DNA from: Vicugna vicugna
Lineage: Eukaryota
Direction of reading: 5' to 3'
NCBI GenBank assembly: GCA_013265495.1
Contig: MU057947.1
Span: 816,048 to 880,047, forward strand
Length of the DNA: 64,000 nt
Every line of letters begins with the position of its first letter. Within the stretch, counting starts at the first letter, position 1. Below are positions 6,010 to 6,733 of the stretch, piece after piece. Below the pieces are notes generated by a model. The model was not told where the DNA came from. It made no database searches and saw only the letters and a program-made list of their open reading frames with translations. A program made the translations under genes and the position numbers.

Positions 6010-6157
6010 TGTTCTCCTGGGGCCTGCAGGTTGTGGAGTGGCCTGGAGAGCAGGAGCAGAGAGTTTGGGGTGGGCGCTGGCCACGGTGACCTAGCGGCCG
6101 GGGTTGAGTCTTGAGTCTCCAAGCCCCACTCGGGTGGTGAATCTGTTCTCTATCAGC
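6010..6157. repeat. Left arm of a perfect 148-bp inverted repeat
   Basis: Exact reverse complement of 6586-6733, checked base by base. Confidence 0.97.
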
Positions 6158-6585
6158 GGCACAGAATCTGTTCTCTATCTGGACAGCCCTCCCCCACCAC
6201 CAACTTGGCAGATGTGCAGCAAATCTCAATGAAAATTTCTAAATACCTCAATTCAAGGTCTCATCTTTCTTTTGAAAGCCAAGGGGTTTGCTAACGCCCC
6301 CCCTGCTCCCAGTGCACGCCCACTGCCCGGCTCCCCCCGCTTTGCCCCTCCCCAGTTACACAATTAAAGTGACAAAGATGTCCAGGTACGGACTCCAGCT
6401 CATGCTGAGGCATCACCCTAAAAGCACCCAAGACCCACAGCCTCCCCACTCAGCAGCAAACCCGTGCACAGACCTGGCCACCGGGGTGGTCACATGGTCA
6501 AAGGGGAGGATTTCAGACCATTTTCTTGCCGTCACAGCTCGGCACACCTGCTCCTACAGGGCACAGGTGCTGCTGGGCCGAGGCT

Positions 6586-6733
6586 GCTGATAGAGAACAG
6601 ATTCACCACCCGAGTGGGGCTTGGAGACTCAAGACTCAACCCCGGCCGCTAGGTCACCGTGGCCAGCGCCCACCCCAAACTCTCTGCTCCTGCTCTCCAG
6701 GCCACTCCACAACCTGCAGGCCCCAGGAGAACA
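6586..6733. repeat. Right arm of a perfect 148-bp inverted repeat
   Basis: Exact reverse complement of 6010-6157; the spacer is 428 bp. Confidence 0.97.

Follow-up and report, generated by a model that had tools for sequence, protein, structure and literature searches.

The window analysed in this work (the whole 64,000-nt stretch of Vicugna vicugna DNA) contains six coding stretches of the EBF/COE family on the minus strand, at 51457, 51214, 50663, 49914, 46849 and 45165, the last of which ends at a GT splice donor at 45118. With the exon motifs used in the search, no later EBF/COE exon was found in the window past this donor. In a PDB search the second coding stretch was identical to COE1 at 51 of 52 residues. 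Given the six stretches, the donor and the lack of a later exon motif, positions 1-45118 were assigned to intron 6 of an EBF3-like gene (minus strand) that runs off the window start, which places the locus described below approximately 38 kb into that intron; no exon in the window lies closer to the repeat than 38 kb. The PDB match confirms the COE family, and the intron 6 location given in a preliminary description of this DNA stands; in line with that description, characteristic residues favour EBF3 over its paralogues, and the gene is probably EBF3. An Rfam search returned no family at the repeat locus. Elsewhere in the window, a tRNA-like head at 818-880 (Rfam RF00005, 29.1 bits against a threshold of 29) is followed by an A-rich tail; ARAGORN found no tRNA at 818-916, and this element looks like a tRNA-derived SINE. 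The assembly has two gaps in the window, at 26610-27151 (542 N) and 33671-33740 (70 N), and a compound (TG)n microsatellite of ∼195 bp (27374-27568) lies just past the first of them.

The locus itself is an inverted repeat. Its left arm (6010-6157) is the exact reverse complement of its right arm (6586-6733) at 148 of 148 bases, CpGs included, and the arms are 428 bp apart, separated by a single-copy spacer (6158-6585), so that the whole unit measures 724 bp, as the preliminary description had reported. The arm is 62% GC and carries five CpGs. Pairing between the arms is lost at the first base both outward and inward, and no other non-microsatellite sequence in the 64-kb window forms an exact repeat of more than 16 bp. 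Three further pairs, each exact over 16 bp, occur at long range (5243-5258/24709-24724, 28271-28286/44094-44109 and 56471-56486/58554-58569), two of them inverted and one direct, and are probably due to chance. A 7-bp tandem duplication at 6104-6118 within the arm is present in both arms and is therefore older than the inverted duplication. No target-site duplication was found around the 724-bp unit for k = 2-20, again in agreement with what had been noted before, and the duplicate bears no retrotransposition marks in the form of an A tail or a LINE-type target-site duplication.

The earlier description missed a junction scar at the left arm. It consists of a 6-bp linker (6158-6163), a third copy, 16 bp long, of the inner end of the arm (6164-6179), and a direct repeat of 7 bp. 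The third copy, which begins 6 bp inside the left arm, is identical to 6139-6154 and to the reverse complement of 6589-6604; in 1216 control windows of spacer size, matches to the arm never exceeded 12 bp. The first seven bases of the left arm (6010-6016) recur at 6169-6175, and 0.65% of 42,949 control windows of 148 bp showed a comparable recurrence of at least 7 bp close to their opposite end. Because of this direct repeat, 6010-6168 has the appearance of a 159-bp insertion bracketed by 7-bp repeats. The 7-mer is the sole repeat that brackets the insert, and it is also found at both ends of the right arm, the putative donor. With 6010-6168 taken out on paper, 6169-6179 and 6589-6599 still form an inverted match of 11 bp, and 7 bp still match the donor at its far end. 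Inverted matches of 11 bp within 500 bp occurred at 21 of 41,431 control sites, which makes them rare per site and plentiful per genome. We read the third copy as an abortive first copying tract, part of which (6169-6179) may be ancestral. The linker together with one neighbouring base (6158-6164) matches 6540-6546 and 6560-6566, both no more than 46 bp from the inner end of the donor; this was noticed post hoc, and either 7-mer is present in 95 of 6230 control 50-bp windows (1.5%). There is thus a weak hint that the linker could have been copied from 6540-6546 or 6560-6566, the other possibility being that it is untemplated. A degenerate CA-rich repeat at 5876-5929, 80 bp to the left of the insertion point, is a possible fork-stalling site.

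Next, we considered the presence of the repeat in sequencing runs. Of the 24 runs listed, 16 were DNA runs (six studies, four organism labels) with 0.95 of the sampled words; the list was ranked by word share, a ranking that favours carriers and from which no allele frequency can be taken. Four of these runs, one per organism label and from three studies, were compared over 5650-6610. In all four the arm formed a separate contig of exactly 148 bp, and the spacer was found in a 488-bp contig with 30 arm bases at each end, and hence with both inner junctions; 488 bp (428 + 30 + 30) is the length predicted for 31-mer graphs. The same contig held the 6-bp linker and the 16-bp third copy in every run, and junctions 6163/6164 and 6179/6180 were bridged by more than 31 letters in 4/4 runs. 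A further contig, also in all four, began with 30 arm bases and continued into the right flank. The arm contig was covered 1.6-2.6 times as deeply as the spacer and 1.6-2.5 times as deeply as the right flank, ratios that support the topology only, contig depth not being a copy number. Only one of the four runs showed the left outer junction directly; the left-flank contig was missing in the other three, perhaps through filtering, and was not counted as an absence. The contigs overlap into the arm by 30 letters, one under the bridging rule of 31. No contig joining the left flank directly to the spacer was present in the four runs, nor was a single-copy allele found in them, the run list being one that favours carriers. 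The arm contig showed no other letters in 4/4 runs, a result that was left out of the count since 31-mer contigs merge both arms and drop rare alleles; they are also blind to spacer orientation. Two scans of metagenome contigs with 20-base patterns for host DNA of a relative gave no matches. Two SNPs were detected in the spacer among the four runs, G>A at 6207 in one run only (X7) and C>T at 6297 in three (X1, X8 and X11), and could be used to tag haplotypes for phasing spacer orientation. A spacer SNP explains about half of the word loss behind the 0.95 share. Missing junction words (expected share 0.935-0.976, depending on the case) were also considered as its source and rejected, the junctions being present in the contigs. 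We concluded that the inverted duplication is real, that it exists in DNA in about two copies and that it is common to the four organism labels; since all four carry it, it is not private to one animal.

Which arm is new was judged from strand composition. The plus strand of the intron is rich in A and C, and the spacer and the right arm agree with this bias, whereas the left arm runs counter to it: the per-base value of A+C minus G+T is -0.24 in this arm against +0.35 and +0.26 in its flanks. Strand-specific Markov log-ratios of orders 0-3 ranged from -3.1 to -4.5 for the left arm and from +5.0 to +7.6 for the spacer. Among 267 held-out windows of 148 bp, those as extreme as the arm agreed with or opposed the region at 14:3, 14:3, 4:2 and 22:4; the corresponding figures for 92 held-out windows of 406 bp were 10:1, 9:1, 17:1 and 8:1. 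In 77 control windows with flanks of the same skew, an opposition as strong as that of the left arm never occurred, and a concordance as strong as that of the right arm occurred in 5. The strictest local control (flank skew of at least 0.15) left three windows and was uninformative. On the basis of the junction scar and the strand asymmetry of the intron, we read the left arm as the insert. The asymmetry indirectly favours this arm as the new one and the spacer as un-inverted, modestly for the arm (odds of roughly 2-5 to 1 that the right arm is ancestral) and more firmly for the spacer (roughly 8-17 to 1).

We propose that the locus is a local inverted duplication in which the left arm was inserted in one germline replication or repair event, and that it is common or fixed in the lineage and most likely neutral; the probability that we attach to this reading is about 0.68. 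The mechanism would be microhomology-mediated template switching, with the order of steps read from right to left as a new bottom strand. Synthesis of that strand would reach ∼6180-6169, where a short stretch matches 6589-6599 on the other strand; the 3' end would switch at this short inverted match and copy a few bases, giving rise to the 16-bp copy. The nascent end would then be released and gain six bases, the linker, before re-priming at 6586, three bases upstream, from where 148 bases would be copied up to 6733. The last seven copied bases match the original site and would permit a return to the strand's own template at 6009. The net result would be the insertion of 159 bp (6010-6168) between 7-bp repeats with the orientation of the spacer kept. 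Unless all 16 bp were templated, an 11-bp inverted match must already have been present for this model to work. The enzymes may have been of the MMBIR/FoSTeS type or those of templated-insertion end joining.

To estimate the age of the duplication, we compared the arms with each other and the spacers between runs. With 0 differences in 148 bp, arm-to-arm divergence is less than 2.0% at 95% confidence. The most different spacers among the four runs have 2 differences in 483 bp (0.4%), and at 0.4% divergence the chance of zero differences between the arms is 0.55; gene conversion is therefore not needed to account for their identity. The preliminary description had called the event either very recent or homogenised by gene conversion, and its youth is upheld while the recourse to conversion is unnecessary. 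The duplication is older than the split of the four sampled lineages, whatever rank their labels have. At ordinary mammalian rates it would be at most a few million years old.

Both arms lie in intron 6 of a minus-strand gene, which places them on one transcript, where they are predicted to be able to pair. Folding of the transcript strand predicted a single helix formed by the arms, at -527.4 kcal/mol (z -33.8 against 20 shuffles), which bears out the suggestion that the pre-mRNA can form a 148-bp duplex; the stability of the fold is a consequence of the duplication itself. Editing of Alu sequences decays with distance on a scale of ∼800 bp (available part of PMC4066801), so that some editing across a 428-nt spacer is plausible, and by this analogy ADAR could edit the duplex wherever the gene is transcribed. 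The two arms of the transcript contain 21 and 35 adenosines. In the available text of PMC7006430, 0.78 million almost perfect inverted duplicates are counted in the pre-mRNAs of 49 organisms and their depletion is described as much weaker in pre-mRNAs than in mRNAs; as far as that source goes, intronic duplexes of this kind are common and editing here would be ordinary. Under the reading proposed above, the hairpin would be a by-product; like other inverted repeats within introns, it may serve as an ADAR substrate before being broken down together with the intron. Dicer products from the hairpin are unsupported, and the 24 runs listed included none of small RNA. Four RNA runs contained small shares of 5700-7100 (0.20, 0.20, 0.17 and 0.05), which give no evidence of expression. 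Recurrent inversion of the spacer, also raised in the preliminary description, is unsupported as well: the asymmetry of the spacer matches that of its flanks, and 148 bp is short for efficient homologous recombination in mammals. The value cited in the accessible part of PMC5414712 for perfect arms to be recombinogenic is an arm-to-spacer ratio above 1, with a strong effect above 16, and the ratio here (148/428 = 0.35) lies below it.

Several other explanations were weighed against this reading. An assembly artefact had been left open by the preliminary description, and there are two N gaps in the window, a left outer junction seen directly in only one of four runs and contig overlaps one letter below 31. 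The same arm, spacer and right-flank contigs nevertheless appeared in 4/4 runs from three studies, at most one of which could come from the sample behind the assembly, and the two inner junctions lie within those contigs; we give an artefact next to no credence. The separate 148-bp arm contig at about twofold depth and the 488-bp junction contig argue against misassembly and against a young multicopy element. The latter bears on the idea that the arms are the terminal inverted repeats of a non-autonomous, MITE-like DNA transposon, with which the arm-spacer-arm layout would agree. Such an element is hard to reconcile with the absence of a target-site duplication (k = 2-20), with the one-sided junction scar and with an unbroken arm contig at 1.6-2.6 times spacer depth in every run compared, which indicates that its 31-mers are not shared by many loci. 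Outside bats, mammals rarely carry active DNA transposons, and we consider a transposon origin highly improbable. The earlier remark that the arms resemble no recognisable SINE, LINE or DNA transposon is supported in so far as they are not a young multicopy element, old diverged copies being outside the reach of this test.

An event of the same type but with the other polarity, in which the right arm was inserted or the duplication arose together with an inversion of the spacer (an inverted repeat with inverted spacer, or a staggered-break inversion), is a more serious competitor, and we regard it as unlikely without dismissing it. The same 8-mer is found near both ends of the right arm (6593-6600 and 6727-6734), which would allow a mirror model; the junction microhomologies would fit a spacer-inverting model equally well; and a short-read assembly may have picked the orientation of the spacer arbitrarily, a choice on which 31-mer contigs cannot discriminate through the arms. 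Against this, it is the left arm that opposes the strand asymmetry followed by the spacer and the right arm, and insertion of the right arm gives no account of the 16-bp copy. Much less probable is functional maintenance, in which gene conversion or selection would preserve the identity of the arms on account of a role in EBF3 expression, played by the duplex or by a doubled regulatory element through editing, splicing, small RNA or enhancer dosage. The very stable fold on the transcript strand, the finding of the repeat under four organism labels and a spacer within the ∼800-bp editing scale (PMC4066801, as available) would be in keeping with such a role. EBF3 is highly dosage-sensitive in humans, and its intron 6 carries conserved regulatory elements, for example UCE318 (accessible part of PMC11436875). 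However, the duplication by itself accounts for the fold, identical arms have a probability of 0.55 at 0.4% divergence, similar duplicates number 0.78 million in 49 organisms (PMC7006430, as available) and the nearest exon in the window is 38 kb away. We would give still longer odds to a stronger version in which the output of EBF3 in this lineage was altered by the perfect hairpin or by the doubling of a regulatory element, and selection then fixed the change; the spacer might also flip. If true, the effect would run through heavy editing, enhancer dosage or a change in the co-transcriptional splicing of the long intron.

Returning to a local inverted duplication with the left arm inserted, we compared the locus with known systems, as described in the available parts of the sources cited. 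In the 1000 Genomes phase 3 data, inverted duplications made up 54% of 229 sequenced human "inversions"; almost all of these duplications were shorter than 1 kb and lay no more than 5 kb from their other copy, and they were not typically linked to retrotransposition (Sudmant et al., 2015, PMC4617611). The present locus resembles this class in size (148 bp, under 1 kb), in its reversed orientation, in its distance (428 bp, under 5 kb), in lacking signs of retrotransposition and in having extra templated sequence at the breakpoint. The human cases differ in being polymorphic, with both alleles sequenced, whereas here the duplicated allele only was seen, in 4/4 runs. The junction features of template switching are present in the form of the 7-bp repeat, the 16-bp third copy and the 6-bp linker. 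Among template-switch types, the majority yield single inverted repeats, and gold-standard tracts in hominids have a maximum of 128 and a median of 12 (Walker et al., 2021, PMC7954356). Our locus is similar to the four-point template switches of types 1-4-3-2 and 3-2-1-4 in that source in having a nearby reverse-complement copy, a perfect inverted repeat and a net gain of sequence, but the linker and the 16-bp copy call for at least one extra switch beyond a single event, and the event type would be fixed here only with the ancestral sequence. With a 148-nt tract, longer than the hominid maximum, we placed it with events of structural-variant scale.

In the MMBIR model, short tracts of low processivity come before longer ones (Hastings et al., 2009, PMC2621351, in the part available). 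Junction microhomology, repeated switching and a short tract followed by a long one are shared by the locus with MMBIR/FoSTeS, but it is far below the kilobase-to-megabase MMBIR cases in size, and its enzymology is not readable from sequence. In yeast, breaks give rise to templated inverted duplications of 5-34 bp (Yu et al., 2024, PMC11724301, in the part available), a size range that includes the 16-bp third copy. Inverted Alu pairs (Bazak et al., 2014, PMC4066801; Barak et al., 2020, PMC7006430; both as available) are alike in forming an intramolecular pre-mRNA duplex from arms a few hundred bases apart; in contrast to them, the arms here are of unique sequence, shorter (148 bp) and perfect, and editing is hypothetical.

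No report of the locus was found in the literature on EBF3 introns and enhancers or on camel structural variation, in a search that covered few subscription papers and no supplements. We concluded that the locus is a young, lineage-shared local inverted duplication that belongs to an already common class of mutation. It would acquire greater importance only if an effect on EBF3 expression were shown. As it stands, it is a clean example of that class, with a multi-switch junction that can be read and that leads to an exact prediction of the ancestral allele, and the insertion could serve as a presence/absence marker of lineages. It may also provide a natural test of whether a perfect intronic duplex of unique sequence is edited like an inverted SINE pair.
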